A stretch of DNA of 64,000 bases from the IMG/VR virus record IMGVR_UViG_3300028840_006907, positions 224,001-288,000 of that record; one strand, written 5' to 3'. The DNA is from a virus. The notes under the pieces were generated by a model. It was not told the origin of the DNA and made no database searches. It saw only the letters and a program-made list of their open reading frames with translations. How positions within the stretch are numbered: position 1 is the first letter of the stretch; each line of letters starts with the position of its first letter. Position numbers and translations under genes: made by a program. Below are positions 17,463 to 42,208 of this stretch, one piece after another.

Positions 17463-17483
17463 AATATCTCATCCTCCTTATGT

Positions 17484-25200: not shown

Positions 25201-28200
25201 AAGGAATCCAAGGTCAGACTGGAATCCAGGGGCAAACTGGAGTCCAGGGTGAAACAGGTATAGAAGGATCTTTATGGGCTGGATTTAGTTATAATGCCAA
25301 GACTGATGATCAGTCAGATACAGATCCTGGTACAGGGAATCTTAAATGGAGTACTGTTGCTCAGGTAAATGCGGGTGAACTTTATGTAGATGATACTGAT
25401 CAATATTCCATAGATTTAAGTAATTTTTATCTTACGTTAAAGGCTGGTGATTCTCTTCGAATAATTCGTCAGGAAGACCCTTCTCAATATCAAATTTATA
25501 ATATAACAAATGTTACAGATAGAACAGGTTGGTTCCGTCTTAGTGTGACCTATGTTACTTCAGGTGGATCTACTTTCAGTCTTAATGATAATATTATTCT
25601 TGTTTTTGTTAAAGCTGGAATTCAAGGTCAGACAGGTGCCCAAGGTATTCAAGGTCAAACAGGAGTCCAAGGAATTCAAGGACAGACTGGAGTTCAAGGA
25701 GCCACAGGTACCCAAGGAATTCAGGGGCCACAAGGCCAGATAGGTCTTCAAGGTACTACTGGGGTCCAAGGTGAAACCGGAGTCCAGGGCACACAAGGTC
25801 AGACGGGTATCCAGGGTACAACAGGTGCCGGGATTCAGGGTCAAACCGGAGTCCAGGGAATTCAGGGTCAAACCGGTATTCAAGGTCAAACAGGAGCAGG
25901 TATTCAGGGAGCTACTGGTATTGCTGGTATAGATGGTCAGACTGGAATCCAGGGTGAAACCGGAATTCAGGGCCAAACTGGAGCTGGTATTCAGGGAGCT
26001 ACTGGTATTGCTGGTATAGATGGTCAGACTGGAATCCAGGGTGAAACCGGAATTCAGGGCCAAACTGGAGCTGGAATCCAAGGTGAAACCGGTATCCAAG
26101 GAATTCAAGGATTAACAGGTATTCAAGGTACAACTGGTGCTGGCATTCAGGGAGAAACTGGAGTACAGGGTACACAAGGTCAAACAGGTGTTCAAGGTCA
26201 AACAGGTGCCGGAATTCAGGGTGAAACCGGAGTCCAGGGCACACAAGGTCAAACCGGTATTCAGGGTCAAACTGGCGCTGGTATCCAAGGTGTGACAGGA
26301 ATTCAAGGAATACAAGGACAAACTGGTATCCAGGGTCAAACGGGTGCCGGAATCCAAGGAGAAACCGGAGTCCAGGGAGAAACAGGAATACAAGGTCAGA
26401 CTGGTGCAGGAATCCAGGGAACTACTGGTGTTCAAGGCGTCCAAGGATTAACAGGTGTCCAGGGTCAAACTGGTGCTGGTATTCAAGGTGAAACCGGAGT
26501 CCAGGGTACTCAAGGTTTAACTGGTATACAGGGTCAGACAGGTGCTGGCATTCAGGGAGAAACCGGGGTCCAGGGAGAAACTGGAATACAAGGTCAGACT
26601 GGTGCAGGGATTCAGGGTGTGACAGGAATTCAAGGTCAAACTGGAGTTCAGGGAACTACAGGAATCCAGGGTCAAACAGGTGTTGGGATCCAGGGTGTGA
26701 CTGGAGTTCAAGGAATTCAAGGTCAAACCGGTATTCAAGGTCAAACCGGTATTCAAGGTGAAACCGGAGTGTCTGGAGCTACAGGTATTCAGGGAATTCA
26801 AGGTCAAACCGGAATCCAGGGTCAGACCGGAGTCCAAGGAGAAACAGGTGTACAAGGTTCTACAGGTGTATTAGGTGATCCTAATTGGATAGATTTTGTA
26901 CCTCAAGCATCTGCTCCTAGTCATCAGGAAGCTCGCCTTTTTTATGATTCAACAGACCATTCATTGAGTTATTACAATGAAGAATCTGATGTTACCCTGA
27001 ATTTAGGTCGTGAATTATATATCAGAGTGTATAATGCAACAGTTTCAACAATAACTAACGGTCAAGTAGTTTATGTCACAGGTGTTGCTGCAGGATACCC
27101 CACAATAGATTTAGCAGATGGTAGTGATTTAACTAAGACTAATAATATAGGAGTGGCTACTCATAATATAGAAGCCTCAACATTTGGTTATATCACATTA
27201 TTTGGATTAGTAAGAGATATTAATACTAATGCTTTCAGTGCTGGTGATGAAGTTTGGTTAAGTGAAAGTACTCCAGGTGGTTACCAGTCTTTTGCAGGTA
27301 CATATGCCGTTAAAATAGGTTATGTTGTTGTTTCAGATACATTAAATGGTTCAATAATGGTAGCTATGGGTGATACGGAAGCTACTATAGCTGGATTGAA
27401 TGATGTAAATCTTACTAGTATCTCTGATGGTCAGTATTTACAATGGGACTCGGATTCTACTAAATGGGTTAATGTTTCTGAAAGTCCTCAAGGTGATACA
27501 GGTATCCAAGGAGCAACTGGAGTTCAAGGAATTCAAGGAACTACAGGAGTTCAAGGAGCAACTGGAGTTCAAGGTATTCAAGGAACCACAGGAATTCAAG
27601 GACAGACCGGAGTTCAGGGTGAAACCGGAATTCAAGGAACTACAGGAGTCCAGGGAGAAACTGGTACTGCAGGAATAGACGGTCAGACAGGAGTTCAGGG
27701 TGAAACCGGTATTGCAGGAATAGATGGTCAGACAGGAGTTCAAGGTACTACCGGAGTTCAGGGAATTCAAGGAACTACAGGAATTCAGGGAGAAACCGGT
27801 ACTGCAGGAATAGACGGTCAGACAGGAGTTCAAGGTGAAACTGGAACTGCAGGAATAGACGGTCAGACAGGAGTTCAAGGTACTACCGGAGTTCAAGGAA
27901 CCACTGGAATTCAAGGTACTACCGGAATTCAGGGAACTACTGGAATTCAGGGAGAAACCGGTACTGCAGGAATAGACGGTCAGACAGGAGTCCAAGGTAC
28001 TACTGGGATTCAGGGGGAAACCGGAGTCCAAGGTACCACAGGGATTCAGGGAGAAACCGGAGTCCAAGGTACTACTGGAATTCAGGGAGAAACTGGTGTT
28101 TTTGGGATTGTCAATTATATCGATTATGAACCTCAAGATACAGTTCCTTCTCATTTAGAAGGTCGTACCTTTTATGACAGTACAGATCATTCTTTAAGTT

Positions 28201-31200
28201 ATTATTTAGATTCAACCGATGTGACTCTTAATATAGGGCAAGAATTTCTTATTCGAGTTGAGAATAAATCGGGTGGAGCAATAGTAGATGGTCAAGCAGT
28301 CTACGTCACTGGTTCTAATGAAGATGTCCCTGAAGTAAATCTAGCAAAAGCAGATTCTTCAAATACTTCTGAGGTTTTAGGTATTGCTACTCAGGTAATT
28401 GAAAATGATACGCAAGGTTATGTTACTTGTGCTGGAAAAATACGTAACTTAAATACTAGTGATTGGACTTCAGGAGATTTACTTTATTTATCTGATAAAA
28501 CTGCTGGTGCATTGACCAATGTTCAACCTTCAGGTAATAGTAATATATTTAGTGTTCATATAGGTCTTGTTATAAGATCACATGCTAGCGATGGTGTTAT
28601 TTTTGCTCACCGTCATATTCCTCATTACCGTCCAGAACAGTTAAGAGATACCACTGCATCTTCTTTAACTGATGGTCAGGTTTTATCTTATGAAAGTAGT
28701 ACAGATAGATGGATAAATAGCACTTTACCTTCAATTACACAATCTATAGATAGAAATGAACCTGGTGGTTTTGTCAACAGAACAGACAGTACAGTAGGTT
28801 TTACTGAATCTACTCGTACTTTGCAAGTTACAACCGCGAGTTCTTATGATATCTATCAGGCTGGTACTAAATATACAATTAATGCAACCGATTCTACTCA
28901 AATTCCTGATACAAATGGTTTGCACTATATTTATTTCGATACCACTAATATGACTGTACAAACGAATCCAGCACTTCAGAATATTCTAGATATCATATAT
29001 GAAAAATCTCTTATTGCTGCGATATATTGGAACTCTTCCGATGATAGAGCTATTATAACCAATGATGAACGTCATGGTATTGTGATGGATGGTAGGACCC
29101 ATTCTTATCTTCATACTACTAGAGGAACTCAATATACATCACCAGGCTTAACTCCTGGAGATTTTGATATTGATGGAGCTGGAAGTAATGACAGTGCCAG
29201 TCAAATGAGTATTTCTGATGGGCAAATACAAGATGAAGATATTTGGTTTGAAATTCAAGATGGTAATCCTCAAATATTAGATCCTATAGCTGAAATTCCT
29301 GTTATTTATAAAGATGGTGCAGGAGCTGAATGGAAAATAAAATATTGGACAGCTTCATGGGCATCTGCAACCTCTTATCCTACTGGTACTATAATAAGAG
29401 AGAGTAATTCTTATTTTAGATCTAGTGGAGGAACTTCAGGTGGTGCTCTTCCTGCTTTTTCTGCAAATCGTGAACCAGGTGATACTATTGTTGATAATAC
29501 AATTACGTGGACAAATGTTGGTTCTCCATTGTCTCCTGTGATTAATTTTGTGGGAGGTAATTATAGATTAGCATATAATCAGTTTACTGGTGGGGCATGG
29601 CAACAAACCGAAGTAACAAATGGTAATTATGTTCTTACTCATATATTTGCTACGACTGATATTTTTCATCCTATTATGGCTATTCAAGGTGAGAATGAGT
29701 ATGGTAATGTTGCTGCAGCTAGAGCAGGAGCTTTAACAGAACTAGATAGTATTGTATTGTCTGGATTGGATTTTCCTGAATCAATATTTCTTGCTACAGT
29801 TATTTTTCAGACTAATAATACTTATACTAATCAAGTAAAAGCTCGAACTATCTCAACTGATACAGGTGATGATTTTATAGATTGGAGATTTTCTCAAATC
29901 AATGCAGCCTCAACAGGTGATCAAGGTCCTCAAGGAGAAACTGGTGTTCAAGGGGTACAGGGTGAAACCGGAGTACAGGGTGAAACCGGAGTAGCAGGAG
30001 CAACTGGTGTTCAAGGAATACAAGGCCAGACTGGAATCCAGGGAGAAACTGGAATTCAAGGAGCCACAGGTGTTGCCGGAGCAACTGGTGTTCAAGGGAT
30101 CCAAGGTCAGACTGGAATCCAAGGAGAAACTGGAATTCAAGGAACTACGGGAGTAGCAGGAGCAACTGGTGTCCAAGGAATCCAAGGAGAAACCGGAATT
30201 CAAGGAGAAACCGGAATTCAAGGAGCAACTGGTGTTCAAGGTATTCAAGGAACAACCGGAGTTCAAGGAATTCAGGGAACCACAGGAGTTCAGGGTGAAA
30301 CCGGAGTCCAAGGAATTCAAGGAACCACAGGAATTCAAGGAATTCAAGGAACCACAGGAGTTCAGGGTGAAACCGGAGTCCAAGGAATTCAAGGAACCAC
30401 AGGAATTCAGGGTGAAACCGGAATTCAAGGAATTCAAGGAACCACAGGAGTTCAGGGAACCACAGGAGTTCAAGGAATACAAGGAACCACAGGAGTTCAG
30501 GGTGAAACCGGAGTCCAAGGAATTCAAGGAACCACAGGAGTTCAGGGAGAAACTGGAGTTCAGGGGATCCAGGGTCAGACTGGAATTCAGGGAGAAACTG
30601 GAGTAGCCGGAGCAACTGGAGTACAGGGCCAAACAGGAGTTCAAGGAATCCAAGGTCAAACTGGTATACAGGGAGAAACCGGAGTAGCCGGAGCAACCGG
30701 AGTACAGGGTCAAACAGGAGTTCAAGGAATCCAAGGACAAACTGGTGTTCAAGGAGCAACCGGAGTAGCCGGAGCTACTGGAGTTCAGGGAGAAACAGGA
30801 ATTCAAGGAATCCAAGGACAAACTGGTATACAGGGAGAAACCGGGGTAGCCGGAGCAACCGGAGTACAGGGCCAAACAGGAGTTCAAGGAATTCAAGGAA
30901 ATACTGGTGTTCAAGGAGCAACCGGAGTTCAAGGAACTCAAGGAGATACTGGAGTTCAAGGAACAACTGGTGTTCAAGGTGAAACCGGTTTAGAAGCAGC
31001 TTATCATTTCTTTGCGGATCAGTTGGATAGTCCTAATAATGCTGATTGGGCTGTTAATGCTCTTGCTCCAGCTTCTGCTGATACTACAAATAATGCTCTT
31101 GTTGTACGTCGGTTTGATGATACGGATGAAGAAGGTGTAGGATTTATGGTAAATATTCCAACAGGAAGGACAAATATAGTATTTGGATTTAAGAGTAGGG

Positions 31201-31487
31201 CTGAAACAGCTCCTGGATCGGCGCATAATGTAAAACCAAAGGTATATGTCAGGGAAATACCTGATAATACTACTGTGGAAAGTTGGTCTTCTGGTTATGA
31301 TTTAAATGCTTTAAGTATGCCAACAAATACCTATTTTCAATATGATTCTCAATCTGTAGCTTTTACCGCTCTTGATATTACAGGTGGGAGATTGGCTCAA
31401 TTTGAAGTAACAAGAGATCATACGGGTGTAACTCCTGATTTAACTGGTGACTGGGACTTGCTAGAGCTTAATGTTTCATTTACCTAG
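22251..31487 (+). CDS. giant modular collagen-like virion fibre/fibril protein
   Basis: AAGGAG RBS; 3,078 aa. Five G-X-Y tracts (about nt 22383-23600, 23950-25260, 25616-26870, 27486-28100, 29916-30990). They are separated by two copies of a ~118-aa module (FAGFNYKAKTD...DRTGWFRLSVT), two copies of a second module (DPNWIDFVPQASAPSHQEARLFYDSTDHSLSYY / IVNYIDYEPQDTVPSHLEGRTFYDSTDHSLSYY), one ~400-aa unique globular region and a ~165-aa C-terminal domain. Confidence 0.9.
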   Translation: MAKTKRKWIELDWYNPNALRAQDIPYDQTESVKDAIDRAASGVLGPTGTTGSTGSTGSTGPTGPTGATGATGAGIQGETGVAGVQGATGTGGGGDTGVQGETGLPGATGIQGTTGIQGTTGIQGETGIQGHTGTVGTTGVQGETGSQGTTGIQGETGVKGETGIQGQTGIAGGAGFPGATGVQGETGVQGTTGVQGETGVQGTTGVAGATGVQGTTGVQGTTGIQGETGVQGDTGVGATGIQGTTGIQGQTGVQGITGAYGGPPGETGVKGETGVQGATGIQGLQGLQGTKGETGTQGIQGQTGVQGETGVQGQTGTGAPGATGVQGQTGIQGTTGIGLGSTGVAGATGIQGTTGVQGRTGVQGFTGAAGLGETGIQGATGVQGATGIQGTTGAGIQGATGISGDTGVQGATGIRGTTGAGIQGATGVQGIQGQTGAQGETGVQGETGIEGSQFAGFNYKAKTDNQSDTDPGIGNLKWSAVAQVTSSELYVDDADVNSTDLSNFYLTLKAADSLRIVRMEDPSQYQIFNITNVTDRTGWFRLSVTPVVSGGSTFSLNDNIILIFSISGPRGQTGVKGETGIQGTTGVAGATGVQGQTGIQGQTGIQGIQGQTGIQGQTGIQGQTGIQGQTGVGAQGATGVAGQTGVQGETGIQGQTGAGIQGTTGVQGVQGLTGVQGQTGAGIQGETGVQGTQGLTGIQGQTGAGIQGETGVQGNTGAFGGPPGETGVQGETGAQGLTGVQGQTGAGIQGATGIQGVTGVQGQTGAGIQGVTGIQGQTGIQGQTGVAGQTGVQGIQGQTGVAGQTGVQGIQGQTGIAGQTGVQGIQGQTGIQGQTGAGIQGTTGVAGATGVQGIQGQTGAGIQGTTGVQGTTGVQGETGTGIQGETGTQGIQGQTGIQGQTGIQGNTGVKGETGVQGFPGPQGTKGDTGAQGIQGETGTQGIQGQTGVAGETGVQGQTGTQGIQGQTGVAGATGAGIQGQTGVQGIQGQTGIQGQTGVQGETGIEGSLWAGFSYNAKTDDQSDTDPGTGNLKWSTVAQVNAGELYVDDTDQYSIDLSNFYLTLKAGDSLRIIRQEDPSQYQIYNITNVTDRTGWFRLSVTYVTSGGSTFSLNDNIILVFVKAGIQGQTGAQGIQGQTGVQGIQGQTGVQGATGTQGIQGPQGQIGLQGTTGVQGETGVQGTQGQTGIQGTTGAGIQGQTGVQGIQGQTGIQGQTGAGIQGATGIAGIDGQTGIQGETGIQGQTGAGIQGATGIAGIDGQTGIQGETGIQGQTGAGIQGETGIQGIQGLTGIQGTTGAGIQGETGVQGTQGQTGVQGQTGAGIQGETGVQGTQGQTGIQGQTGAGIQGVTGIQGIQGQTGIQGQTGAGIQGETGVQGETGIQGQTGAGIQGTTGVQGVQGLTGVQGQTGAGIQGETGVQGTQGLTGIQGQTGAGIQGETGVQGETGIQGQTGAGIQGVTGIQGQTGVQGTTGIQGQTGVGIQGVTGVQGIQGQTGIQGQTGIQGETGVSGATGIQGIQGQTGIQGQTGVQGETGVQGSTGVLGDPNWIDFVPQASAPSHQEARLFYDSTDHSLSYYNEESDVTLNLGRELYIRVYNATVSTITNGQVVYVTGVAAGYPTIDLADGSDLTKTNNIGVATHNIEASTFGYITLFGLVRDINTNAFSAGDEVWLSESTPGGYQSFAGTYAVKIGYVVVSDTLNGSIMVAMGDTEATIAGLNDVNLTSISDGQYLQWDSDSTKWVNVSESPQGDTGIQGATGVQGIQGTTGVQGATGVQGIQGTTGIQGQTGVQGETGIQGTTGVQGETGTAGIDGQTGVQGETGIAGIDGQTGVQGTTGVQGIQGTTGIQGETGTAGIDGQTGVQGETGTAGIDGQTGVQGTTGVQGTTGIQGTTGIQGTTGIQGETGTAGIDGQTGVQGTTGIQGETGVQGTTGIQGETGVQGTTGIQGETGVFGIVNYIDYEPQDTVPSHLEGRTFYDSTDHSLSYYLDSTDVTLNIGQEFLIRVENKSGGAIVDGQAVYVTGSNEDVPEVNLAKADSSNTSEVLGIATQVIENDTQGYVTCAGKIRNLNTSDWTSGDLLYLSDKTAGALTNVQPSGNSNIFSVHIGLVIRSHASDGVIFAHRHIPHYRPEQLRDTTASSLTDGQVLSYESSTDRWINSTLPSITQSIDRNEPGGFVNRTDSTVGFTESTRTLQVTTASSYDIYQAGTKYTINATDSTQIPDTNGLHYIYFDTTNMTVQTNPALQNILDIIYEKSLIAAIYWNSSDDRAIITNDERHGIVMDGRTHSYLHTTRGTQYTSPGLTPGDFDIDGAGSNDSASQMSISDGQIQDEDIWFEIQDGNPQILDPIAEIPVIYKDGAGAEWKIKYWTASWASATSYPTGTIIRESNSYFRSSGGTSGGALPAFSANREPGDTIVDNTITWTNVGSPLSPVINFVGGNYRLAYNQFTGGAWQQTEVTNGNYVLTHIFATTDIFHPIMAIQGENEYGNVAAARAGALTELDSIVLSGLDFPESIFLATVIFQTNNTYTNQVKARTISTDTGDDFIDWRFSQINAASTGDQGPQGETGVQGVQGETGVQGETGVAGATGVQGIQGQTGIQGETGIQGATGVAGATGVQGIQGQTGIQGETGIQGTTGVAGATGVQGIQGETGIQGETGIQGATGVQGIQGTTGVQGIQGTTGVQGETGVQGIQGTTGIQGIQGTTGVQGETGVQGIQGTTGIQGETGIQGIQGTTGVQGTTGVQGIQGTTGVQGETGVQGIQGTTGVQGETGVQGIQGQTGIQGETGVAGATGVQGQTGVQGIQGQTGIQGETGVAGATGVQGQTGVQGIQGQTGVQGATGVAGATGVQGETGIQGIQGQTGIQGETGVAGATGVQGQTGVQGIQGNTGVQGATGVQGTQGDTGVQGTTGVQGETGLEAAYHFFADQLDSPNNADWAVNALAPASADTTNNALVVRRFDDTDEEGVGFMVNIPTGRTNIVFGFKSRAETAPGSAHNVKPKVYVREIPDNTTVESWSSGYDLNALSMPTNTYFQYDSQSVAFTALDITGGRLAQFEVTRDHTGVTPDLTGDWDLLELNVSFT
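25899..26072 (+). repeat. exact 87-bp tandem duplication inside the collagen-like gene
   Basis: 25899-25985 and 25986-26072 are identical base for base (ggtattcagggagctactggtattgctggtatagatggtcag...ggccaaactggagct). Each copy encodes GIQGATGIAGIDGQTGIQGETGIQGQTGA. Confidence 0.9.
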
Positions 31488-31498: not shown

Positions 31499-32656
31499 AT
31501 GCCCGAATGGGGAATAGATACCGCAGGTACTACAACAACGACGCCGAATTGGTGTCGTGCTATGGGTGGAACCTCTCCCAATATAGACAATATGCTTTTA
31601 AAAAGTGTGTCTATATATGTAGGTTCTACTCATACTCAACAAATCCGATTAGCAGTTTATTCTGGTGGTAATTTAACGACAGGTCCTGATGGTGCAACTC
31701 TCGTTTATGATGCTGGGGTGACTTCTGGCACGGCTTTAAACACATGGTTAACTATAAATATTCCTACTGAAGTAATTCTTCCTAAAAATGCTGTGACATG
31801 GGTAGCATTTAGAAATAATGGTGGTTATATAATCCATTATTATGGTACCAGTCCAGCCGGAAATGATTTTCAAACTGCTCGTGGTAGATATAGCTCTACT
31901 GTTCTTGATGGAGATGAAACTTCAGCTTTTCCTTCTACATGGCCTTCTGATGGTGGAGCTTTTGCTGCTTTTTGGTATTCTACATATATTATTTATCAAA
32001 TAAGATATTATGGAGGATTATTTTTCGAATCATCGAGTAGTATGTATTTATCTTCCGTATCATCATTTACTCCTCCTGCAAATTGTTCTGTCTCTTTTTG
32101 GCTCTTTCATAGTAATGATGGTGGCACTCCTAGAATAGTTAGCCATAGTGATAATTGGGAAATATGGATAAATGCAAGTAATCAAATATCTAATGATATG
32201 AATTGGGGTACTTCTTTGGTATCTAGTGCTACTATTAATACTAATACACGATATTATATAGTATGTACAAGAGCTTCTGACAATACTTTACAAATATATG
32301 TAAATGGCCAATTTGATAATTCTAGTAGTGGTGGAACAGGTTCACCAGGATCGGCCACGTTTTATGTAGGTGTTAAACAAACATTATTACAATATTTTGA
32401 TGGTTATATAGAAGATTTAAGAATTTATAATAGAGTCCTTTCAGCAAATGAAATAGCCACTATTTATGGCTGTAAAGGAACAGATTCCATTACTTATGGC
32501 TTAATTCATAAATGGCCTATGCAAGAAAAGGCAATAGATGTGGTTGCTAGTGGAACCGGGTCTATAATAGATTTAGGTCCAAGTAGACTAGATTTGACTC
32601 CTAATAATAATCCTACTTATTCTGGAACACAATTGAAATTTAAAAGGTTTGGATAA
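31499..32656 (+). CDS. virion-associated protein with shared LamG-like (concanavalin-type) C-terminal domain, paralogue 1
   Basis: 385 aa with AAGGAG RBS. C-terminus: FTPPANCSVSFWL...WEIWI...YYIVCT...IYVNG...FDGYIEDLRIYNRVLSANEIATIYGCKGTDSITYGLIHKWPMQE. This stretch aligns with the last ~200 aa of the next three paralogues. Confidence 0.7.
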   Translation: MPEWGIDTAGTTTTTPNWCRAMGGTSPNIDNMLLKSVSIYVGSTHTQQIRLAVYSGGNLTTGPDGATLVYDAGVTSGTALNTWLTINIPTEVILPKNAVTWVAFRNNGGYIIHYYGTSPAGNDFQTARGRYSSTVLDGDETSAFPSTWPSDGGAFAAFWYSTYIIYQIRYYGGLFFESSSSMYLSSVSSFTPPANCSVSFWLFHSNDGGTPRIVSHSDNWEIWINASNQISNDMNWGTSLVSSATINTNTRYYIVCTRASDNTLQIYVNGQFDNSSSGGTGSPGSATFYVGVKQTLLQYFDGYIEDLRIYNRVLSANEIATIYGCKGTDSITYGLIHKWPMQEKAIDVVASGTGSIIDLGPSRLDLTPNNNPTYSGTQLKFKRFG

Positions 32657-34878
32657 TGGGTAAACAAATTTTTAGTTCAGAGGGTTCCGATACTTTCACT
32701 GTACCAAAAGGAGTGACTTCCATTACTGTCAAGGCATGGGGTGCAGGAGCTGGTGGTGGAGGGGGTGGAACGGCTAGTGTTGGTGGAGCCGGAGGTGGTG
32801 GAGGTTATGTTCAGGGTGATATATCTGTAACACCTGAAGAAACCCTTAATATTCATGTAGGTGGAAATGGAGGTTTAGGAACTTTTACAGGTACCGCAGC
32901 TTCTGGTGGTGGGGGAGGAGGTAAATCTTCAGTTTACAGAAGTACAACTCCTTTATTTGTAGCTGGCTCTGGAGGAGGCGGAGGTGGTGGTGATAATTCA
33001 TCAGGGACTCCGGCGGGAGCCGGAGGTGCTGGTGGAGGAAGTACTGGTGGGTCTGGTGGTTCTTCCGGAGGAGCTAGTGGCGGTAGTGGTGGCACTCAGT
33101 CAATTGGTGGAACACAGGGTTCTGGAGGTCAAAATGCAGGAGTTTTTGGAAAAGCTCGTGCAGAAACCACTTTAAATAATGCCTTAAATTTTGATGGTGA
33201 TCCTGAATATGTTACAATAGGAACAGATTCTGTTTTTAATTTTACTAATTCTTTTACCCTTGAATGTTGGATTAAACCCGATAATGTAACAGGATCTAAA
33301 AGGGTAATAAGTTCAAGATCATCTGATACCAATAATGGAGTTGGATTTGGTATTAACGGTAACAATCCTGCTTTTACAACATATGGTAAACAAGATTTTA
33401 CTTCTACTGGAACCGTTTCAGCAGGAGTTTGGGCTCATATAGCAGTAGTCTTTACTTCAGGTAATAATGCAAGATTTTATATAAATGGAGAGTTTATAAA
33501 TCAGGTAGACGGTACCCAAGCAGCTACAACTTCTGGTATATATATGGTTCTTGGTATGCTTGGTTTTTATGATGATGAACAATATTGGGTAGGTGAACTT
33601 GATGAAATAAGAATGTGGAATGATGAGCGTACTGATAAAGAGATATCTGATTATTATGCTCAAACTCTTACAGGTAGTGAAGCAAACTTAGTCGCTTACT
33701 ATAAATGTAATGAATCATCAGGTACAAATCTTCCCGACGAAACCACAAATAGTAATGATGGCACACTCCAAAATATGGAAGATGCTGATTGGGTTACATC
33801 AAGTTGGTCTCCATTGACAGACGCTGCTGATGCTGGGGCTGGTGGTGACGGTGGAATGGGTACTGGCACTGGGGGTGGTGGCTCTGGTGGCACAACATAT
33901 GGCGGTGATGGTGGAATTGGTGATAGTGGTGGCACCCCTGGATTTTCTGGCGGTGGCGGAGGCGGTGCAGGCTATGGTGGAGGTGGCGGGGGATCATGTT
34001 CGGTTTCTGGCGGAGACGCTGGTGGTGGTGGGGGCGCTGGCTCTAGCTATATTATAGGTACCGCTACGTCAACTACCAATACGCAAGCATCAGGCCAGAA
34101 TCCACCTAATACGGGCGACCCAGACTATACTGGTTCTGTAGGAGTTGGAGGAAATGGGGGTAGTACAAGTACAAATGGGAATAATGGTAATGATGGTTTA
34201 ATAGTTATCAGTTGGGTTGACCCTCCAGCATATATAGGTATGAAATTTGAATCAGATAGTTCACAATTTTTGTCTTCTGTAGCAAATTTTACCGCTCCTT
34301 CTAGTACAACTGTTACATTTTGGTTATCTTCTACTAATCTCACAGGATTAAAAAGAATTATTGGTTGGTCCGATTTTTGGGAAATAAAGACGATTGATAA
34401 TGATATATCTAATGATTTAAATGGAGAGTTAACCACTTATTCTACAACTCCATTAGATCTTAATACTCTTTATCATGTTGCTTGTACATATAATTCCTCT
34501 GATGATGCTGCGAAAGTATATATAGATGGGTCTCTTGATGGTACGGGTTCAAATACTGAAACTCCTTCTGGAACAACACTACAAATAGGTTTTAGACCTG
34601 GTGCACCTGACGGTTATTTTGACGGTTATTTAGGTGATATAAGAATTTATGATAGGGTTTTATCTGATTTTGAAATAGCCACAATTCATGCATGTCGAGG
34701 AACTGATGGAATAGTCCATGGTTTACGTAATAGGTATTTATTAAATGAAAGAGCAATGAATGTTGCTGCTGATGGGACAGGTTCGGTTAAAGATATGGCT
34801 CAGGATCAATTAAACATGACTCCAAATAATAGTCCTGTTTATGAAGGAACAACATTAAAATATAGAAGGATGGGTTGA
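32656..34878 (+). CDS. glycine-rich (polyglycine-type) + LamG + shared LamG-like C-terminal domain protein, paralogue 2
   Basis: 740 aa. N-terminal FTVPKGVTSITVKAWGAGAGGGGGG...GGGGYVQGDISVTPEETLNIHVGGNGG matches the Gly_rich family pattern. Central LamG motifs FTLECWIKPD, WAHIAVVF, FYINGEF, GELDEIRMWN. A second Gly-rich block, then C-terminal FDGYLGDIRIYDRVLSDFEIATIHACRGTDG. Confidence 0.75.
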   Translation: MGKQIFSSEGSDTFTVPKGVTSITVKAWGAGAGGGGGGTASVGGAGGGGGYVQGDISVTPEETLNIHVGGNGGLGTFTGTAASGGGGGGKSSVYRSTTPLFVAGSGGGGGGGDNSSGTPAGAGGAGGGSTGGSGGSSGGASGGSGGTQSIGGTQGSGGQNAGVFGKARAETTLNNALNFDGDPEYVTIGTDSVFNFTNSFTLECWIKPDNVTGSKRVISSRSSDTNNGVGFGINGNNPAFTTYGKQDFTSTGTVSAGVWAHIAVVFTSGNNARFYINGEFINQVDGTQAATTSGIYMVLGMLGFYDDEQYWVGELDEIRMWNDERTDKEISDYYAQTLTGSEANLVAYYKCNESSGTNLPDETTNSNDGTLQNMEDADWVTSSWSPLTDAADAGAGGDGGMGTGTGGGGSGGTTYGGDGGIGDSGGTPGFSGGGGGGAGYGGGGGGSCSVSGGDAGGGGGAGSSYIIGTATSTTNTQASGQNPPNTGDPDYTGSVGVGGNGGSTSTNGNNGNDGLIVISWVDPPAYIGMKFESDSSQFLSSVANFTAPSSTTVTFWLSSTNLTGLKRIIGWSDFWEIKTIDNDISNDLNGELTTYSTTPLDLNTLYHVACTYNSSDDAAKVYIDGSLDGTGSNTETPSGTTLQIGFRPGAPDGYFDGYLGDIRIYDRVLSDFEIATIHACRGTDGIVHGLRNRYLLNERAMNVAADGTGSVKDMAQDQLNMTPNNSPVYEGTTLKYRRMG

Positions 34879-34881
34879 TAA

Positions 34882-37173
34882 ATGGGACAGCAATCTTTCA
34901 GTACAGCCGGTTTAACTTCATTTCAAGTTCCTGTTGATATTACATCTATAACGGTAAAGTGTTGGGCTGGTGGAGCTGGTGGAGGAGCCGGGGGGACTTC
35001 TGGTGTTGGAGGAGTGGGTGGCGGTGGTGGCTATGTTCAGGGAGATATAACCGTCACTCCTTCGGAAATACTTAGTATTCATCTTGGGGGTGCTGGGAAT
35101 TCAGGAAGTTTTGGAGGAACTTCTGGTTCTGGAGGTGGTGGTGCTGGTCTATCTAGTGTCTCGCGTGGCTCAACACCTTTATTTGTAGCCGGAGCAGGTG
35201 GGGGAGGCGGTGGTGGAGACAATAGTAATCCGGCTGCTGGTGGAGCTGGTGGGGCAGGAGGTTCCTCTACCGGAGGAACTGGAGGCAGTTCTCTAAATGC
35301 CAATGGAGGAACTGGTGGAAGTCAAGTATCTGGTGGTACTGGTGGTACTGGTGGTATAGTTTCAGGTGCTGCTGGAGGTGCCCCTATTTCTGCAGCAGCT
35401 AATTTTGGTAATTGCCTTGACTTTGATGGAACAGATGAATGGGTCTCTTCAGCTAATTCTTATTCTAATCCTCAGACTTTTACAACTGAGTTATGGTTTA
35501 AAACTACCACTACTTCAGGAGGATTATTAATTGGTTTCGGAAACAGTCAAACAGGAACTTCTACCAGTTATGACAGAAGGATCTGGTTAAGTAATTCCGG
35601 AAATGTCTATTGTGGAGTTTATGCTGGATTAATTTTAGGAGTTCAGACGGTAAATTCTTCTGGTACATATAATGATGGAGAATGGCATCATGTTGCAATG
35701 GTCCATGACTCTGGAGGGTTTGAATTATTTGTTGATGGTATATCACAAGGAACAAATGCAAATCCTTCACAAGATACTTTTACAGGTTACTGGCGACTCG
35801 CAGGAACTACGGTTTGGTCGGGATGGTCTCCTGCTCCTACTAATAATTATTATGTAGGTCAAATTGATGAAGTCAGATTTTGGCAAGAAGCTCGAACAAC
35901 TTGTCAATTAATAAATAATGCAAATAAATATTTAGCTGGAACTGAGACTAATTTAGCTTTTTATTGGAAATTAAATGAATCTTCCGGTTCTACCGCAAAT
36001 GATGAAACTACCAATAATAATGATGGCACACTCCAAAATATGGAAGATGCAGACTGGGTTACTTCTAGTTGGAGTGGTAAGTGGATAGGTATTGGTACTG
36101 GAGGTGATGGTGGAGACGGTAATGATGGAGGGACTACTAGAGGATCAGAGGCTAATGGAGGTATCACTTGTGCTGGATCAGGTGGTACAGCCGATGTCGG
36201 TGCTGCTGGTTATGGTGGCGGTGGTGGCGGTGGCGCTGGTTACGGTGGAGGTGGAGGAGGCTCGGCTTCTCAAGCTTCAAATGCTGGTGGAGGTGGTGGA
36301 GGAGGTGGCTCCAGTTATATAATTGGTTCTGCTACGTCAACTACCAATACGCAAGCTTCGGGACAGAATCCTCCCAACACAAGCGACCCGGACTATACTG
36401 GTTCTGCAGGAGTTGGTGGAAATGGGGGTGCTACAAGTACTGCAGGATCAAATGGTAATAATGGTTTGATTGTTATTAGTTGGACAGAACCTCCGACATA
36501 TGTTGGGATAACATTTGTAGCGAGTAGTTCTCAAAGATTGGCATCAGTAGCAAATTTTACTCCTCCTCAAAATTGCTCCGTATCATGGTGGTTAAAACTA
36601 TCTTCGTTGAATCAGTTTGGGAGGACAGCAAGTCTAAGTGTTAATTGGGAAATAGGTCTATCTGATAATGCAGGTACTCCTACTGCTAATGGTATTATTA
36701 ATGCTATGAATAGTGGTGCTCTTTTGTATTCTTCAACAAGTCTTCAAGCTGATCTTCGTTATCATGTTGTATGTACAGCAACTTCTAGTGCCCGTCAAAT
36801 ATTTTTAAATGGTGTTCTTGATAATAGTGCTGCTTCTGGAGGGACTGCTCCTGCAGCAGGGACTCTTTATGTTGGATGTCAATATGGTGGAACTCTATAT
36901 TTTCTTGATGGGGCTATAGAGGATTTAAGGGTATATAATCGGATAATTACTGCAGAAGAAGTGGCTACAATTTATGCTTGTGAAGGAAGAGACGGTATAA
37001 CATATGGCTTAATACATCGATGGCCTATGAATGAAGGTGCAGCAGGTGTTGTAGCGAGTGGTACTGGTTCTGTAAAAGATGAGGCTACAAATCAATTGAA
37101 TTTAACTGCAACTAATAGTCCAGTTTATTCTGGATCACAATTGAATTATAGACGAAAATATAGGACTCATTAA
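34882..37173 (+). CDS. glycine-rich + LamG + shared LamG-like C-terminal domain protein, paralogue 3
   Basis: 763 aa with the same architecture as 32656-34878: FQVPVDITSITVKCWAGGAGGGAGG...GGGGYVQGDITVTPSEILSIHLGG; FTTELWFKTT, WHHVAMVH, LFVDG, GQIDEVRFWQ; LDGAIEDLRVYNRIITAEEVATIYACEGRDG. Long stretches are identical with paralogue 2 (DGTLQNMEDADWVTSSW; TSTTNTQASGQNPPNT). Confidence 0.75.
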   Translation: MGQQSFSTAGLTSFQVPVDITSITVKCWAGGAGGGAGGTSGVGGVGGGGGYVQGDITVTPSEILSIHLGGAGNSGSFGGTSGSGGGGAGLSSVSRGSTPLFVAGAGGGGGGGDNSNPAAGGAGGAGGSSTGGTGGSSLNANGGTGGSQVSGGTGGTGGIVSGAAGGAPISAAANFGNCLDFDGTDEWVSSANSYSNPQTFTTELWFKTTTTSGGLLIGFGNSQTGTSTSYDRRIWLSNSGNVYCGVYAGLILGVQTVNSSGTYNDGEWHHVAMVHDSGGFELFVDGISQGTNANPSQDTFTGYWRLAGTTVWSGWSPAPTNNYYVGQIDEVRFWQEARTTCQLINNANKYLAGTETNLAFYWKLNESSGSTANDETTNNNDGTLQNMEDADWVTSSWSGKWIGIGTGGDGGDGNDGGTTRGSEANGGITCAGSGGTADVGAAGYGGGGGGGAGYGGGGGGSASQASNAGGGGGGGGSSYIIGSATSTTNTQASGQNPPNTSDPDYTGSAGVGGNGGATSTAGSNGNNGLIVISWTEPPTYVGITFVASSSQRLASVANFTPPQNCSVSWWLKLSSLNQFGRTASLSVNWEIGLSDNAGTPTANGIINAMNSGALLYSSTSLQADLRYHVVCTATSSARQIFLNGVLDNSAASGGTAPAAGTLYVGCQYGGTLYFLDGAIEDLRVYNRIITAEEVATIYACEGRDGITYGLIHRWPMNEGAAGVVASGTGSVKDEATNQLNLTATNSPVYSGSQLNYRRKYRTH

Positions 37174-37220
37174 TTATAAAATTTACATATAAGATCTATA
37201 TAACATATAAGGAGGTTCAA

Positions 37221-37736
37221 ATGTATAAAACAGCATTAGTATGTGGAGTCTGGGACAAATTGCATGAAGGGCATAAAAATATAATTAAATATTCTATAGA
37301 AAATTCTGAATTACTGAAAATTTTTGTATTAGAAATTAATATACATGATAGACATGAAGAGCCTTTTATACCTTATGAAGAAAGAAAAAAAACAGTCGAA
37401 AATTATGTCCTTTCTTTAGGGGCAAGAGATAAGGTACAAATAATAGGAAAAAAAGATGCTACGGAAGTTATGGTATTGGATGAATTGAGAACTGTAGATT
37501 GCGCCTTTGCTTGTGCTAAAGATAAAAATCAGCAAATTTTAGAAATGATAAAAATAACTCAAGATAGAGTTGCTAAATTAGAAGGCCCTGATGGACGTAA
37601 GCCATTTGTTATGGAATGGGTAGATCCTGTGAAAAATGATGAAGGAAAAATAATCTCTTCAAGTAAATACAGGAAAAAAAGCCGTTTAGAAAAAGAAAAG
37701 AGAGTAAATTCTTCAGGTGGATATGGTCGATTTTAA
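37221..37736 (+). CDS. cytidylyltransferase-family nucleotidyltransferase
   Basis: 171 aa with AAGGAGG RBS. N-terminal ALVCGVWDKLHEGHKNIIKYS carries the (H/T)xGH signature of the cytidylyltransferase / PPAT / TagD fold. Confidence 0.6.
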   Translation: MYKTALVCGVWDKLHEGHKNIIKYSIENSELLKIFVLEINIHDRHEEPFIPYEERKKTVENYVLSLGARDKVQIIGKKDATEVMVLDELRTVDCAFACAKDKNQQILEMIKITQDRVAKLEGPDGRKPFVMEWVDPVKNDEGKIISSSKYRKKSRLEKEKRVNSSGGYGRF

Positions 37737-38959
37737 TGGCACAATATAAAGTTCGTACATCTAATGCTAACCAAGGCCAGTATATGAAAAATGCTGGCTC
37801 TCGAACTACTACTGGTCCATTACAATTTGGGAGATCTGGTAAAGGAACAGCAAATGATGTTCGAATAGCTTTAAGATGGCAACCAAATATAGATATGACT
37901 GGTAAATATATGATAGTTACTTCTGCCTATATTCGTGTTACAAGAGAGACTGAAGATACTGGCGCATTTACAGCTACAGTTAGAGTGCATAATGGTTCTG
38001 CTCCTGATTTATCTACAACTGATTTAGCTTGGGGTTATTCTGATATAGGTTATTCTCAATCATGGTCGATAGCAGATTCATGGAGTGCTGATACTGAATT
38101 TACTTCACCTGATATGAAAAGCGCAGTACAAGCTTGGTTTAATAGGAGTGCTCATTCAAGTACGGATTGGATTGGTTTCATTATTGATGATGGTGATTCT
38201 GCTGATGATGAATATAAAGGAGTCTATGATGCTGATCATTCTACTTCAAGTTATCGTCCTGAATTAGAAATAAATTATAAAATATATTCAGGAGGAGATA
38301 ATGGTGGATTATCTTTTACAGCATCGAGTTCTCAGTATTTGGAATCAGTTAGTAATATTACACCTCCTGCAACATCTTCAGTATCTTTTTGGATTTATTT
38401 AACTGAATTGAATCAATTTGGTCGAACTATTAGTCGATTTGCTTATGAAATTGGTCTATCAGATAATGCCGGATCTCCTCCTAATGGGATAGTTAATGCT
38501 ATGACTAGTGGAACTATACTTGTATCAAGTTCTCTTACAGTGAATACCCTTTATCATTGTGTTTGTACGGCCTCATCTACTGCTCGACAGATATATCTTA
38601 ATGGAGTATTGAATACTTCAGGAGGTGGTGGTACGGTATCAACAGCAGGGACTATGTGGATCGGGTCACAAGATGGTGTTGATTTTTTCCTATCTGGTCA
38701 TTTAGAAGATATACGAATTTATAATCGTATCCTTACATTAGCTGAAGTTCAAACTATTTATGCTTGCCAAGGCTCAGATAGTATTACTTATGGATTAATT
38801 CATAGATGGCTTATGAATGAGGGTCCGATAAGTTCGGTAGCAAGTGGTACTGGACTAGTAAAAGATTATGGGATAAATCAAGTAAATATGACTCCATTTA
38901 ATAGTCCAGTTTTTTTAGGAACTCAAATGAAAAATAGGAATAAGTATAGGACCCATTAG
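37736..38959 (+). CDS. virion-associated protein with shared LamG-like C-terminal domain, paralogue 4
   Basis: 407 aa; start overlaps the upstream stop (TAATG). Distinct N-terminal beta-rich domain ending SSYRPELEINYKI. C-terminus LSGHLEDIRIYNRILTLAEVQTIYACQGSDSITYGLIHRWLMNE. Confidence 0.7.
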   Translation: MAQYKVRTSNANQGQYMKNAGSRTTTGPLQFGRSGKGTANDVRIALRWQPNIDMTGKYMIVTSAYIRVTRETEDTGAFTATVRVHNGSAPDLSTTDLAWGYSDIGYSQSWSIADSWSADTEFTSPDMKSAVQAWFNRSAHSSTDWIGFIIDDGDSADDEYKGVYDADHSTSSYRPELEINYKIYSGGDNGGLSFTASSSQYLESVSNITPPATSSVSFWIYLTELNQFGRTISRFAYEIGLSDNAGSPPNGIVNAMTSGTILVSSSLTVNTLYHCVCTASSTARQIYLNGVLNTSGGGGTVSTAGTMWIGSQDGVDFFLSGHLEDIRIYNRILTLAEVQTIYACQGSDSITYGLIHRWLMNEGPISSVASGTGLVKDYGINQVNMTPFNSPVFLGTQMKNRNKYRTH

Positions 38960-39048: not shown

Positions 39049-40779
39049 ATGGCAGATGTATTAAATAGAACAACGAAAGAACAGAGGTTCAGTGTTCATA
39101 CTCCCGATTATTCAGTAGTAGACTGGATAATAAATCCAGATCTATCCGGAGTGATTGGAGTCCCAGTAAAATATTGGAAAATAGATGGTGATGTTGTTTC
39201 AGAGATGAATCAATCTGAAAAAGATGCGGTTGATAGTGCTCTATTGCCTGGTATAAAAACAGCTAAAAAAGCTTCTTTAAGAACAGAGGGTGACCAATTA
39301 ATAGAAAATCAAGGCTATTCAGCAGGTAAACAAAGATCATTAATTTCTCAGCATTCTAAAAGTACTAAAATGAAACCCAAAAGAGAAAAGTATGTTAGAG
39401 ATTTTATGGATTGGATTGAGCAAGTAGATGAAGAAGTCGTATTAAAACAAGATTTGGTAGATGATCAGACTTCAGAAGCAGGAGTAAATTCTGTTATTTT
39501 AGATTCTGCAGGTCTTATTGCTGCTGATCCTGGTGTTACCATTTCAGGTACTCTTGATACTACAGATAGTTCTAGCTTAGATAATTATCTTGATACAAAT
39601 GCTGAAGTGACTGATCCATTAACCGGTATTGTAGGTCCGTGGGATCAAATGCAGATATTAAATCATCGACGTGAAATATATAATGACTCATCAAATCCAA
39701 TTTATTGGCCTGATAATACTGCCATTTTAGGTTCGGGAGGTTATTTAGAAGATCATGCCAATCGGATTAATAATCTTGAAGTGATTCATGGAAAGTTAGG
39801 TTGGCATAATCAATTAATAACTCAAGCGACTTATACTCGACCTAAAGATCTGCTCATTTATTATGGGTGGTTAAACTCTTATAATTCAGGAATTCTTTCT
39901 TGGAACAATGAGAGCGTGGCTCAGCATATGGCGAGATATAGTCTTCTTGTTTTTGGAGACGGTATTCAGGATCCTGGCCATGGAGATTATGCCAATACTC
40001 AAGTTATTGTTCCACGTGTAAAGGCTTTAAGTTGTTATTCTGAAATTTATGGCTATGTAACTGTTGATCAAACTTTTAGTGATTTTACTTCAAAAGTTGA
40101 TCAATGGGATACCTTACAAGTAGATGGAATATTTTTAGATGAAGCGGGTTATGATCATGGTCGGACTCGGGATGAATTTAATCAGAGAGTAGATTATGTC
40201 CATGGCAAAACTTATGCTAATAAATGTTTTGCTAATGCTTGGAATACAGATCATATTTTAGGAATAACCAATGATCCTAGTTATCCTGATTCTACATATA
40301 ATGACTCTTGTGCTGAATCTAATTTAACTTTAAACGATTGGATTCTTCTTGAAAGTTTTCCTGTCAATACTACAGCATATGCAGCAAATGATGGGTATGA
40401 ATCTATCAGTGATTGGGCCACAAGAGGAGTAAAAGCGAAAGATTTAAGAGCTACATATGGTGTAAATTTTGCCAGTGTTAGTATGATTTCCAATGACCAT
40501 ACAGATAATACTGCTTTATCTAACTTTGCCTTTACTTCTTCGATGATGTTTTCATTAGAAGGTCATGGAACCTCAGATACCAATTATGCTGCTAGTTCTG
40601 CTAGGGTTAATTATTTTCCTCGTCCAGATATCACACAAATGGGAGTTGTTTATAGCTTAAATTGTTCTGTCCAAATTGATGCGAATGATTCGTCAGTCTA
40701 TCATAGATATACACCGAATGCTAAAATGTCGTTAGATTTTTCTGATGGTGCTCATACAAGTACTATAGCAAAATTTTAA
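39049..40779 (+). CDS. putative polysaccharide-active (beta/alpha)8-barrel-like protein with N-terminal extension, paralogue A
   Basis: 576 aa with AAGGAG RBS. The C-terminal ~310 aa is collinear with 41276-42208: RPKDLLIYYGWLNSYNS, LLVFGDGIQDPGHGDYANTQ, YGYVTVDQ, VDGIFLDEAGYDHG, NAWNTDHILG, WILLESFPVN. The DGIF[LM]DE block resembles GH114 / spherulin-4-type hydrolases. This comparison is from memory only. Confidence 0.5.
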   Translation: MADVLNRTTKEQRFSVHTPDYSVVDWIINPDLSGVIGVPVKYWKIDGDVVSEMNQSEKDAVDSALLPGIKTAKKASLRTEGDQLIENQGYSAGKQRSLISQHSKSTKMKPKREKYVRDFMDWIEQVDEEVVLKQDLVDDQTSEAGVNSVILDSAGLIAADPGVTISGTLDTTDSSSLDNYLDTNAEVTDPLTGIVGPWDQMQILNHRREIYNDSSNPIYWPDNTAILGSGGYLEDHANRINNLEVIHGKLGWHNQLITQATYTRPKDLLIYYGWLNSYNSGILSWNNESVAQHMARYSLLVFGDGIQDPGHGDYANTQVIVPRVKALSCYSEIYGYVTVDQTFSDFTSKVDQWDTLQVDGIFLDEAGYDHGRTRDEFNQRVDYVHGKTYANKCFANAWNTDHILGITNDPSYPDSTYNDSCAESNLTLNDWILLESFPVNTTAYAANDGYESISDWATRGVKAKDLRATYGVNFASVSMISNDHTDNTALSNFAFTSSMMFSLEGHGTSDTNYAASSARVNYFPRPDITQMGVVYSLNCSVQIDANDSSVYHRYTPNAKMSLDFSDGAHTSTIAKF

Positions 40780-41275: not shown

Positions 41276-42208
41276 ATGAGACCAAAGAACCTGTTAATTT
41301 ATTATGGGTGGCTTAACGCTTATAATAGCGCAGAAAATCAATGGCAAAATGAGAACGTGGCGATTGACCTTTGTAAATATAATGTACTCGTTTTTGGAGA
41401 TGGGATTCAGGATCCAAGTCACGGGGATTTTGCAAATACTCAAGCAATACTCGCTCGAATCAGGGAATTAAACCCAGCTTCATTGATTTTCGGTTATGTG
41501 ACTGTAAACCAATCTATAACAGATTTTACTACAAAAGTAGTATTATGGAATGATCTTGAAGTTGACGGCATCTTTATGGATGAAGCAGGCTATGATTATG
41601 GGAAAAATCGTGCTGAGTTAAATAGTCGTATTGATGTTGTCCATAGTCAAGAGACAGCAAATACATGCTTTTTAAATGCTTGGAATATTGATCATATTCT
41701 TGGTATAGAAGAAGATTCAAATTTTCCTAATGCCACTTTTAATCCAGGTTTAGTAGATTCTAATGCTTATGAAGATGATTGGTATTTATTAGAAAGTTTT
41801 GCCGTTAATACTTCAGCTTATGGTACAAATGATGGGTATGCTAATGGAAGTGAATGGGTTGTTCGTGGAAATAAAGCTATAGAAAAACGAAAAGAATATG
41901 GTATAAAGTTAGCCTCAACTGGAATTATTAATGATGATAATCCTGAAGGTCAGAGTTTATTTGATTTTTGTTATAGGTCTGCATTGGCTTTTAGTTTAAA
42001 TGCCAATGGTACTTCGGATGCTTTTTATGGAGCTAGTTCTGCAGCTACTAAATATTGGGATCGTCCTAAACCTTATCATTTCACCAAAGAGGAAGAATTT
42101 TCTGTAGTGGAAGATCAGAAGACAGCTAATGCTTATATTAGATTTTTTCCATTCATGAAAGTAACTCTTAATTTCGGAACCAATAGTTCATCTATATTAA
42201 GATGGTAA
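41276..42208 (+). CDS. putative polysaccharide-active (beta/alpha)8-barrel-like protein, paralogue B
   Basis: 310 aa with GGGAGG RBS: RPKNLLIYYGWLNAYNS, VLVFGDGIQDPSHGDFANTQ, VDGIFMDEAGYDYG, NAWNIDHILG, WYLLESFAVN. Confidence 0.5.
   Translation: MRPKNLLIYYGWLNAYNSAENQWQNENVAIDLCKYNVLVFGDGIQDPSHGDFANTQAILARIRELNPASLIFGYVTVNQSITDFTTKVVLWNDLEVDGIFMDEAGYDYGKNRAELNSRIDVVHSQETANTCFLNAWNIDHILGIEEDSNFPNATFNPGLVDSNAYEDDWYLLESFAVNTSAYGTNDGYANGSEWVVRGNKAIEKRKEYGIKLASTGIINDDNPEGQSLFDFCYRSALAFSLNANGTSDAFYGASSAATKYWDRPKPYHFTKEEEFSVVEDQKTANAYIRFFPFMKVTLNFGTNSSSILRW

Follow-up and report, generated by a model that had tools for sequence, protein, structure and literature searches.

Analysis of a 64,000-nucleotide window of the IMG/VR virus record IMGVR_UViG_3300028840_006907 (positions 224,001 to 288,000 of the record) revealed four paralogous genes at positions 31499-38959, which lie between a giant collagen-like fibre gene and a gene whose product begins with a conserved NTPDY domain. 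The four proteins share a C-terminal laminin G-like (LamG) unit, and the same order of fibre, LamG gene and third gene recurs in many environmental phages. We favour, with moderate confidence, the reading that the four genes are the expanded middle slot of a portable three-gene fibre cassette and encode interchangeable binding heads on a constant LamG unit. The first-pass annotation of this DNA had described the array accurately but had overlooked the wider cassette. The window is the whole stretch that was analysed; the features of the cassette region are listed below.

22251-31487, plus strand: slot 1, fibre protein, 3078 amino acids (aa), 60% collagen-like G-X-Y (Pfam Collagen, E 6e-225, 23 stretches)
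30996-31484, plus strand: C-terminal domain (CTD) of the fibre, aa 2916-3078, beta jelly roll like those of carbohydrate-binding modules (CBM) 6, 35 and 36
31499-32656, plus strand: slot 2, paralogue 1, 385 aa; N-domain B aa 1-171, LamG unit aa 172-385 (nt 32012-32653)
32656-34878, plus strand: slot 2, paralogue 2, 740 aa (delimited by Pfam, AlphaFold2, excision and hhalign)
32656-33165, plus strand: paralogue 2, Gly-rich N-half, aa 1-170
33166-33816, plus strand: paralogue 2, inserted LamG with its own tail, aa 171-387
33817-34215, plus strand: paralogue 2, Gly-rich C-half, aa 388-520
34216-34875, plus strand: paralogue 2, C-terminal LamG unit, apparently permuted, aa 521-740
34882-37173, plus strand: slot 2, paralogue 3, 763 aa, architecture as paralogue 2
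34882-35406, plus strand: paralogue 3, Gly-rich N-half, aa 1-175 (approximate)
35407-36081, plus strand: paralogue 3, inserted LamG, aa 176-400 (approximate)
36082-36501, plus strand: paralogue 3, Gly-rich C-half, aa 401-540 (approximate)
36502-37170, plus strand: paralogue 3, C-terminal LamG unit, aa 541-763 (approximate)
37221-37736, plus strand: cytidylyltransferase-like nucleotidyltransferase, 171 aa, HxGH motif (Pfam CTP_transf_like, 31.6 bits, cutoff 21)
37736-38959, plus strand: slot 2, paralogue 4, 407 aa; N-domain aa 1-189, LamG unit aa 190-407 (nt 38303-38956)
39049-40779, plus strand: slot 3 protein, 576 aa (NTPDY profile, E 1e-39)
41276-42208, plus strand: 310-aa paralogue of the C-terminal part of the slot 3 protein (Spherulin4, 20.8 bits, below the cutoff of 30.2)

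Relationship of the four paralogues

All four genes are on the plus strand and end in a common domain, as annotated before. Alignment of the final ~215 residues gave pairwise identities of 42-62% with 49 invariant columns, the closest pair of C-terminal units being those of paralogues 3 and 4 (62%), and the DNA of the last 273 nt was 61-71% identical among the four copies. Values of the synonymous substitution rate (dS) between copies of the C-terminal unit were 0.8-1.5, and the ratio of nonsynonymous to synonymous rates (dN/dS) was ~0.3-0.6, a ratio that is weakly informative this near to saturation; the duplications are therefore old and the LamG unit is under constraint. The cytidylyltransferase gene previously placed between paralogues 3 and 4 was recovered by Pfam, and NCBIfam yielded PPAT-like matches for it that were all below threshold. 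This gene is missing at the equivalent position in the related loci L078 and L076.

DNA repeats D3, D4 and D6 are common to paralogues 2 and 3. A stretch of 72 nt (33736-33807 and 36001-36072) is 89% identical between the two genes, the longer DNA repeats being 70-76% identical; the encoded residues, DETTN.NDGTLQNMEDADWVTSSW, make up the tail strands of the LamG insert, and the identity of the stretch indicates local gene conversion or strong constraint. The orthologue of paralogue 3 in L078, P0002, is 69% identical to it.

A LamG unit that looks circularly permuted

Profile searches showed that all four proteins match Laminin_G_3 (PF13385) at 64.6-154.5 bits, passing the gathering threshold of 27.6 bits, with whole-protein E-values of 3.5e-22, 3e-45, 2.4e-36 and 1.4e-17 for paralogues 1, 2, 3 and 4. 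Paralogues 2 and 3 each gave two Laminin_G_3 stretches, so the internal LamG that had been read in them is present besides the C-terminal one. In the AlphaFold2 model of paralogue 2, residues 520-737, including the tail, have predicted local distance difference test (pLDDT) values >90 and the internal LamG ~85. A Foldseek search with this model retrieved laminin LG domains, the LamG of PAPP-A and pentraxins at E-values of 1e-10 to 1e-7. Pfam, the model and the structural matches all agree with the jelly-roll fold that had been proposed for the C-terminal domain. A tblastn search with paralogue 2 retrieved only generic LamG matches in cyanophage structural proteins.

The unit consists of the Laminin_G_3 core and a conserved tail of ~60 aa with the motif GLIHRW.mNEg....asGtG.vKD.g.nqlNmTPnNsPvy.G..lk. 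The strong profile matches and the confident model make it similar to the Laminin_G_3 jelly rolls of Pfam, whereas the strand segment GL.a.W.f.e..D.sG..n.G stands after the C-terminal helix here and before the core canonically. In canonical single-domain LamG_3 proteins a similar segment, e.g. GLVAHWKMNDTSGTTVVDTKGNNG, lies ahead of the core, and the proteins end just past the C-terminal helix, while the cassette-family proteins begin at the core and have the tail segment placed after that helix. When separate hidden Markov models (HMMs) for core and tail were applied, the core of the canonical proteins P0061-P0087 spanned ~80 to the end, and the tail HMM gave pre-core matches in 8 of 12 canonical proteins, all of them weak (independent E-values 6e-5 to 4e-2, 3.6-12.9 bits); in the cassette proteins the core spanned 3-170 and the tail 171-220. 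The cassette proteins thus depart from the canonical order of strands, in which the GL.a.W.f.e..D.sGn segment lies on the N-terminal side of the core, and the internal LamGs of paralogues 2 and 3 have the same permuted order (in the model of paralogue 2, strands follow the helix at 327-333). Judged by sequence order, the C-terminal unit looks like a circularly permuted LamG.

Helix and tail form the most conserved portion of the unit (0.66-0.72 vs 0.57). The conserved (T/S)P(N/F)N(N/S)P tail, noted before at the end of the domain, is integral to the LamG unit, apparently as its permuted N-terminal strand segment. The tail is thus no additional anchor peptide; its counterpart precedes the core in canonical LamG_3 proteins. 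The majority of slot-2 proteins consist of the LamG unit and nothing else (217-256 aa), and the unit is therefore autonomous.

The fibre gene and its C-terminal domain

The fibre CTD has no Pfam family and gave no match in the PDB sequence search. Fold searches indicated that it is superposable on the CBM6/35/36 beta jelly roll and hence lectin-like, while the CTD has no sequence similarity to any CBM family, which sets it apart from CBM6, CBM35 and CBM36 and from the lectin-like C-terminal domains of depolymerases (KP32gp38, 9qrm). The motifs DSPNNxxW and FDDTxEEG are conserved and specific to the CTD family. A search of 1.84 billion representatives gave 1,342 clusters of the family at E<=1e-3, and 1,028 at E<=1e-10, clusters being defined at 50% identity. 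The CTD stands nearly always at the extreme C-terminus, at times in two or three tandem copies; in unrelated contigs it terminates proteins of collagen-like, beta-helix and other kinds. The lectin-like fold and the tandem copies at fibre ends are as expected of a distal binding domain. Tandem ends of two or three copies were seen in the relatives P0212, P0215, P0221, P0222 and P0262. Internal CTD matches were at first candidates for CTD-LamG fusions and proved to be tandem CTDs.

Bacillus BclA-type filaments have a collagen stalk with a globular C-terminal head. The fibre shares with them the long G-X-Y stalk and a beta-sandwich head, and differs in that the head is CBM-like in the fold searches and not C1q/TNF-like, and in that beta-helix and non-collagen proteins carry this head at their ends too. 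A C1q/TNF-like head, expected from collagen-stalk proteins, was rejected on this evidence. The stalk is interrupted by non-collagen inserts at aa 454-567, 1009-1122, 1545-1747 and 1955-2555, none of which matched Pfam; among them a ~114-aa domain occurs twice (454-567 and 1009-1122), as does an NWIDFVPQ...HSLSYY-type domain.

Pairing, spread and position of the cassette

A total of 67 IMG/VR loci and other fetched loci were scanned with HMMs built in this analysis, which gave 62 distinct CTD genes. The LamG gene was the next gene after the CTD gene in 61 of the 62, with a median gap of -1 nt (11 nt between the fibre and paralogue 1), and a slot-3 NTPDY gene followed the LamG gene or genes in 48 of the 62 loci. 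A single LamG copy filled slot 2 in 52 loci and two copies did so in 8; four were seen in this window only. The N-terminal domain of slot 3 (aa 1-80) has the motif NTPDY..W.INPdLSG...P.KYWK...EM..EK..VD, and the C-terminal part has a weak likeness to Spherulin4 (16.3 bits, below cutoff). The 310-aa gene that repeats the latter part is kept at the same position in L078. From its sequence, the domain shared by 39049-40779 and 41276-42208 is possibly a TIM barrel resembling those of glycoside hydrolases, which would fit a role as depolymerase; a PDB sequence search with the slot-3 protein gave no match.

Sinorhizobium phage Phosso (PV764938.1, 469 kb) was the only cultured phage with the trio (genes 160-162, annotated 'hypothetical'), and the CTD was found in one of 50,697 cultured phage records. 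Among 185,579 species-representative bacterial and archaeal genomes it was found on four contigs of metagenome-assembled genomes only.

A gene immediately downstream of a fibre gene and translationally coupled to it (median gap -1 nt) is also what would be seen if the slot-2 LamG proteins were fibre assembly chaperones of the T4 gp38 or Tfa type, present in four variants and absent from the virion or loosely held on it. The small size of the bare unit (~220-250 aa) and the strict pairing with the fibre CTD are in line with such a role, and in locus L034 the cassette follows the tape measure and baseplate wedge genes, the classical tail-fibre and chaperone slot. We nevertheless consider chaperones unlikely. 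No Tfa or gp38 chaperone family in Pfam or NCBIfam matched the LamG unit, and the sole PHROG match to 'tail fiber assembly' (phrog_863, weak, E 5.8e-7) was with the first half of the Gly-rich domain in paralogue 2. Large additions of a binding type (the glycine-rich domain and an extra LamG) on a lectin-type jelly roll are hard to rationalise in a pure chaperone, four chaperones would be needless for one fibre gene, and the partner is present even beside CTD-only proteins of 165-175 aa, which leave little to assemble.

The position of the cassette in the genome varies. It stands between the portal gene and the head morphogenesis and major capsid genes in L060, after the major capsid gene in L004 and between the terminase and portal genes in this window, and the gene neighbourhood does not decide between attachment to head and to tail. 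This location among head genes, the absence of CTD-LamG fusions from the data examined and the frequency of LamG_3 in annotated phage virion structural proteins (PHROGs 18802, 701 and 8510; the cyanophage matches) would agree with the LamG proteins being independent virion-surface lectins, that is head or tail decorations or short side fibres, in which the LamG unit itself binds glycans and linkage to the fibre gene reflects co-regulation. This seems improbable to us, since co-regulation would not require a pairing nearly as tight as that seen, with start/stop overlap, in 61 of 62 loci from contigs of ~20 kb to genomes of 470 kb, and the bare 220-aa unit has no obvious separate segment for virion attachment.

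The glycine-rich domain of paralogues 2 and 3

The Gly-rich parts of paralogues 2 and 3 contain 35-41% glycine with G4-G8 runs. The second Gly-rich block reported in the first-pass annotation is present, but it is the second half of a single domain that is split by the inserted LamG, and the two halves are uninterrupted in the relatives P0011, P0012 and P0014. Paralogue 2 matched Gly_rich_2 (PF21722) at 21.8 bits, against a threshold of 24.3, over profile positions 3-156; following in-silico excision of the LamG the score was 24.4 bits and the match extended over positions 3-205. Paralogue 3 gave no direct Gly_rich_2 match. In alignment A3, where matching was possible for its 15 Gly-rich rows only, 8 members matched Gly_rich_2 at E<0.01 (best 9.8e-10).

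Comparison of a profile of the reconstituted domain (A7) with residues 212-481 of the Myxococcota protein P0022 by hhalign gave a probability of 99.35% and an E-value of 6.6e-21 over 253 columns. Residues 230-451 of P0022 pass ALK_LTK_GRD (PF12810) at 43.8 bits, and residues 214-479 match PF21722. Among the non-glycine motifs shared with P0022 are F.VP..VTS.TVK.WG, GYV.G.I.VTP.E.L, GGTQ, SSYI, DPDY and GL.VI. Transitive homology of the sequences thus supports a tie between the Gly-rich domain and the ALK/LTK glycine-rich family, in agreement with the link drawn before; the direct Pfam match to Gly_rich_2 is borderline for paralogue 2 and absent for paralogue 3. The domain differs from PF12810 and PF21722 members in having a whole LamG inserted in its middle.

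In the AlphaFold2 model the Gly-rich domain of paralogue 2 is confident at residues 1-115 and ~460-520 only, and residues 116-169 and 388-459 have pLDDT <50. The Gly stretch 29-50 has block means of 81-93, with neither helix nor strand in the DSSP assignment. A polyglycine II (PGII) geometry of the domain is plausible. A PDB sequence search with the Gly-rich profile retrieved no solved structure, and in the Foldseek search with the full model of paralogue 2 LamG matches dominated, so that it was uninformative for the Gly-rich part.

Several long open reading frames run antisense or in alternative frames within the collagen-like and Gly-rich coding regions (several in 22560-30977; 34125-34436; 36168-36458). 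Their repetitive Ser/Leu/Asn/Cys or Trp/Arg composition marks them as low-complexity artefacts and not genes.

Other N-terminal domains and module shuffling in relatives

Domain B of paralogue 1 belongs to no known family; it recurs inside P0010, as an internal domain of 36% identity (E 1e-22), and in P0012, P0013 and P0014. The N-domain of paralogue 4 (aa 1-189) gave no family match. The relative P0009 scores 24.3 bits with DNRLRE (NF033679), against a cutoff of 34, and an equation of the paralogue 4 N-domain with the DNRLRE-like N-domain of relatives found no significant support: BLASTP found nothing, and hhalign against the profile of the latter gave a weak match (probability 18%, E 1.3e-3).

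Using G for the Gly-rich domain, (L) for an inserted LamG, B for domain B and C for the C-terminal LamG unit, the order in L078 is fibre, a 434-aa protein (another N-domain followed by C), P0011 (G-C), P0002 (G(L)-C) and slot 3, with no nucleotidyltransferase and no paralogue 4. Locus L076 encodes P0007 (A-G(L)-C) and P0003 (G(L)-C), and L002 encodes one protein of 1091 aa, A-G(L)-B-C. A PDB sequence search with P0011 gave nothing useful. The module set has been repeatedly split, fused and reordered in relatives, the LamG unit with permuted order always standing last; the earlier view of variable N-terminal modules on a constant C-terminal unit is reinforced by these fusions in other orders. 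In P0012 a LamG is nested within the C-terminal LamG, and in P0013 domain B is split by a LamG insertion.

Source phage and gene neighbourhood

Judged by its sequence, the source is an uncultured huge phage, for which no close cultured relative was found. A search of cultured-phage DNA with the array region gave a single low-identity match of 130 nt. Identical proteins are also encoded by metagenomic contigs, the longest of 469,617 bp; one of these contigs, JGI 3300017963 Ga0180437_10000019 (388,651 bp), was read out. The terminase is 35% identical to that of an uncultured 485-kb phage and 27% to that of a 308-kb Tunturiibacter phage. Other features of the window are as follows.

1144-3036: large terminase
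3040-10053: second giant collagen-like protein, 2337 aa, with BNR/PSII_BNR-like repeats, directly after the terminase
19016-21643: multidomain enzyme, 875 aa, with methyltransferase, glycosyltransferase family 2 (GT2), tetratricopeptide (TPR) repeats and glycosyltransferase family 9 (GT9)
43131-46484: portal protein, 1117 aa, with intein
49421-50989: prohead protease
61866-63947: multidomain enzyme, 693 aa, with GT2 and methyltransferase

The second collagen-like giant has a different C-terminus, in which the CTD was not found, and no LamG partner gene lies downstream of it. The two multidomain enzymes may glycosylate virion fibres. Together with the nucleotidyltransferase inside the array and the glycosyltransferases downstream of the cassette in L002, these glycosyltransferase/methyltransferase genes would be consistent with the four LamG proteins being non-structural, acting on glycans in infection or on the phage's own fibre glycosylation in concert with the neighbouring glycosyltransferases, nucleotidyltransferase and Spherulin4-like proteins. 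We regard such a role as very unlikely: the cassette also occurs in small phages without such enzymes, L078 and L076 have no nucleotidyltransferase, and no catalytic domain was found in any of the four paralogues with Pfam and NCBIfam.

A block of minus-strand genes (10276-17813) breaks the plus-strand structural region, with a UvrD-type helicase at 10276-12027 on the minus strand, and the GC skew changes sign over this block. The portal intein is ~485 aa long and contains a LAGLIDADG homing endonuclease; the insert begins FLFGN|C... and finishes ...STHN|C. The portal of L078 has 630 aa, with an uninterrupted FLFGN-AFLF at the intein site, and is 85% identical to the window portal C-terminal of the insert and 60% N-terminal of it. 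In a promoter scan, promoter-like sites were fewer than in shuffled sequences, and terminator-like sites were about equal to them.

Proposed function of the cassette

In the reading that we favour, of interchangeable heads in a fibre cassette, slot 1 would be a fibre of any length ending in the CBM6/35/36-like jelly-roll CTD, slot 2 one or more proteins on the permuted LamG unit, translationally coupled to slot 1, and slot 3 a protein with the conserved N-terminal NTPDY domain and a variable C-terminal part, here possibly with a Spherulin4 fold resembling that of glycosidases. As the constant element, the LamG unit would associate with the fibre CTD, and perhaps with the slot-3 N-domain as well. 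The N-terminal additions would be exchangeable ligand-binding modules, namely the LamG-inserted ALK/LTK-type glycine-rich domain (twice), domain B and an unassigned beta domain. They would diversify binding at the fibre end, so that one giant collagen fibre could receive alternative or simultaneous heads. The LamG proteins would then be associated with the fibre, be part of the virion and bind ligands. In favour of this reading are the paralogy and LamG fold, the gene pairing, the autonomy of the LamG unit, the modularity of its additions, the conservation of helix and tail, the lectin-like fold of the CTD, the homology of the Gly-rich domain to an ALK_LTK_GRD-positive domain and the tail-fibre slot that the cassette occupies in L034. 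The terms receptor-binding tips and anchoring domain, used in the first-pass annotation, are ones we infer from the near-obligate pairing with the fibre CTD.

Several points weigh against this proposal. The conserved part of the slot-2 proteins is C-terminal, unlike in gp38-type adhesins, and fibre chaperones are just as typically encoded next to a neighbour gene with overlapping start and stop. The cassette lies in a head-gene region in L060, L004 and this window, and its position is not diagnostic. No CTD-LamG fusion was found in 75 loci and 150 representatives, which gives no Rosetta-stone support for contact. The CTD retains 40-65% identity across very different phages, which is unusually conserved for a receptor-binding tip.

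A stronger form of the proposal is possible but rather doubtful: the LamG unit would be a universal plug on the CBM-like end of trimeric fibres, with the slot-3 N-domain as a third partner, and up to four heads, two of them of the ALK/LTK-type polyglycine kind, would be carried on the giant collagen fibre.

Comparison with gp38 adhesins

The adhesin gp38 has an N-terminal attachment domain and a beta-helix, and its C-terminal part is a PGII sandwich bearing hypervariable loops (PMC12032242). As in the gp37-gp38 systems of T2, T6 and S16 (PMC12032242; Dunne et al. 2018, cited therein), a separate gene directly downstream of the fibre gene encodes a modular protein with a glycine-rich domain, which is proposed here to be an exchangeable binding head at the C-terminal end of the fibre. 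The relation to T-even gp38-type adhesins that had been suggested was not borne out, as searches of PDB and Pfam linked the sequences neither to gp38 nor to a solved PGII structure. The domain order is also reversed, with a constant C-terminal LamG and an N-terminal Gly-rich domain, the fibre end is a CBM-like jelly roll and not a gp37 tip, and four paralogues are present where gp38 is one gene. The comparison with gp38 is therefore one of analogy only.

Novelty and significance

LamG proteins, glycine-rich adhesin-like domains and pairs of fibre and accessory genes are already known kinds. The cassette, the permuted LamG, the insertion of LamG into a glycine-rich domain and the four-fold expansion appear to be new, as no paper describing any of them was found; nor was a literature description found of Phosso, of PF21722 or of the cassette of fibre, LamG and slot 3. 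Two of the three conserved cassette domains have no Pfam family. The permuted LamG, the LamG within an ALK-type glycine-rich domain and the LamG within LamG are useful for the study of protein evolution and for the engineering of modular binders.

Of all parts of uncultured and huge phages, the machinery for receptor binding is the one least understood. The cassette provides a testable handle on host recognition, and the cultured phage Phosso has a minimal version of it. If the LamG unit does act as a universal plug, mixed fibre tips would be assembled combinatorially and host range would be broadened or switchable, and the cassette would represent an undescribed and widespread receptor-binding complex of environmental phages, comprising ~1,000 clusters.

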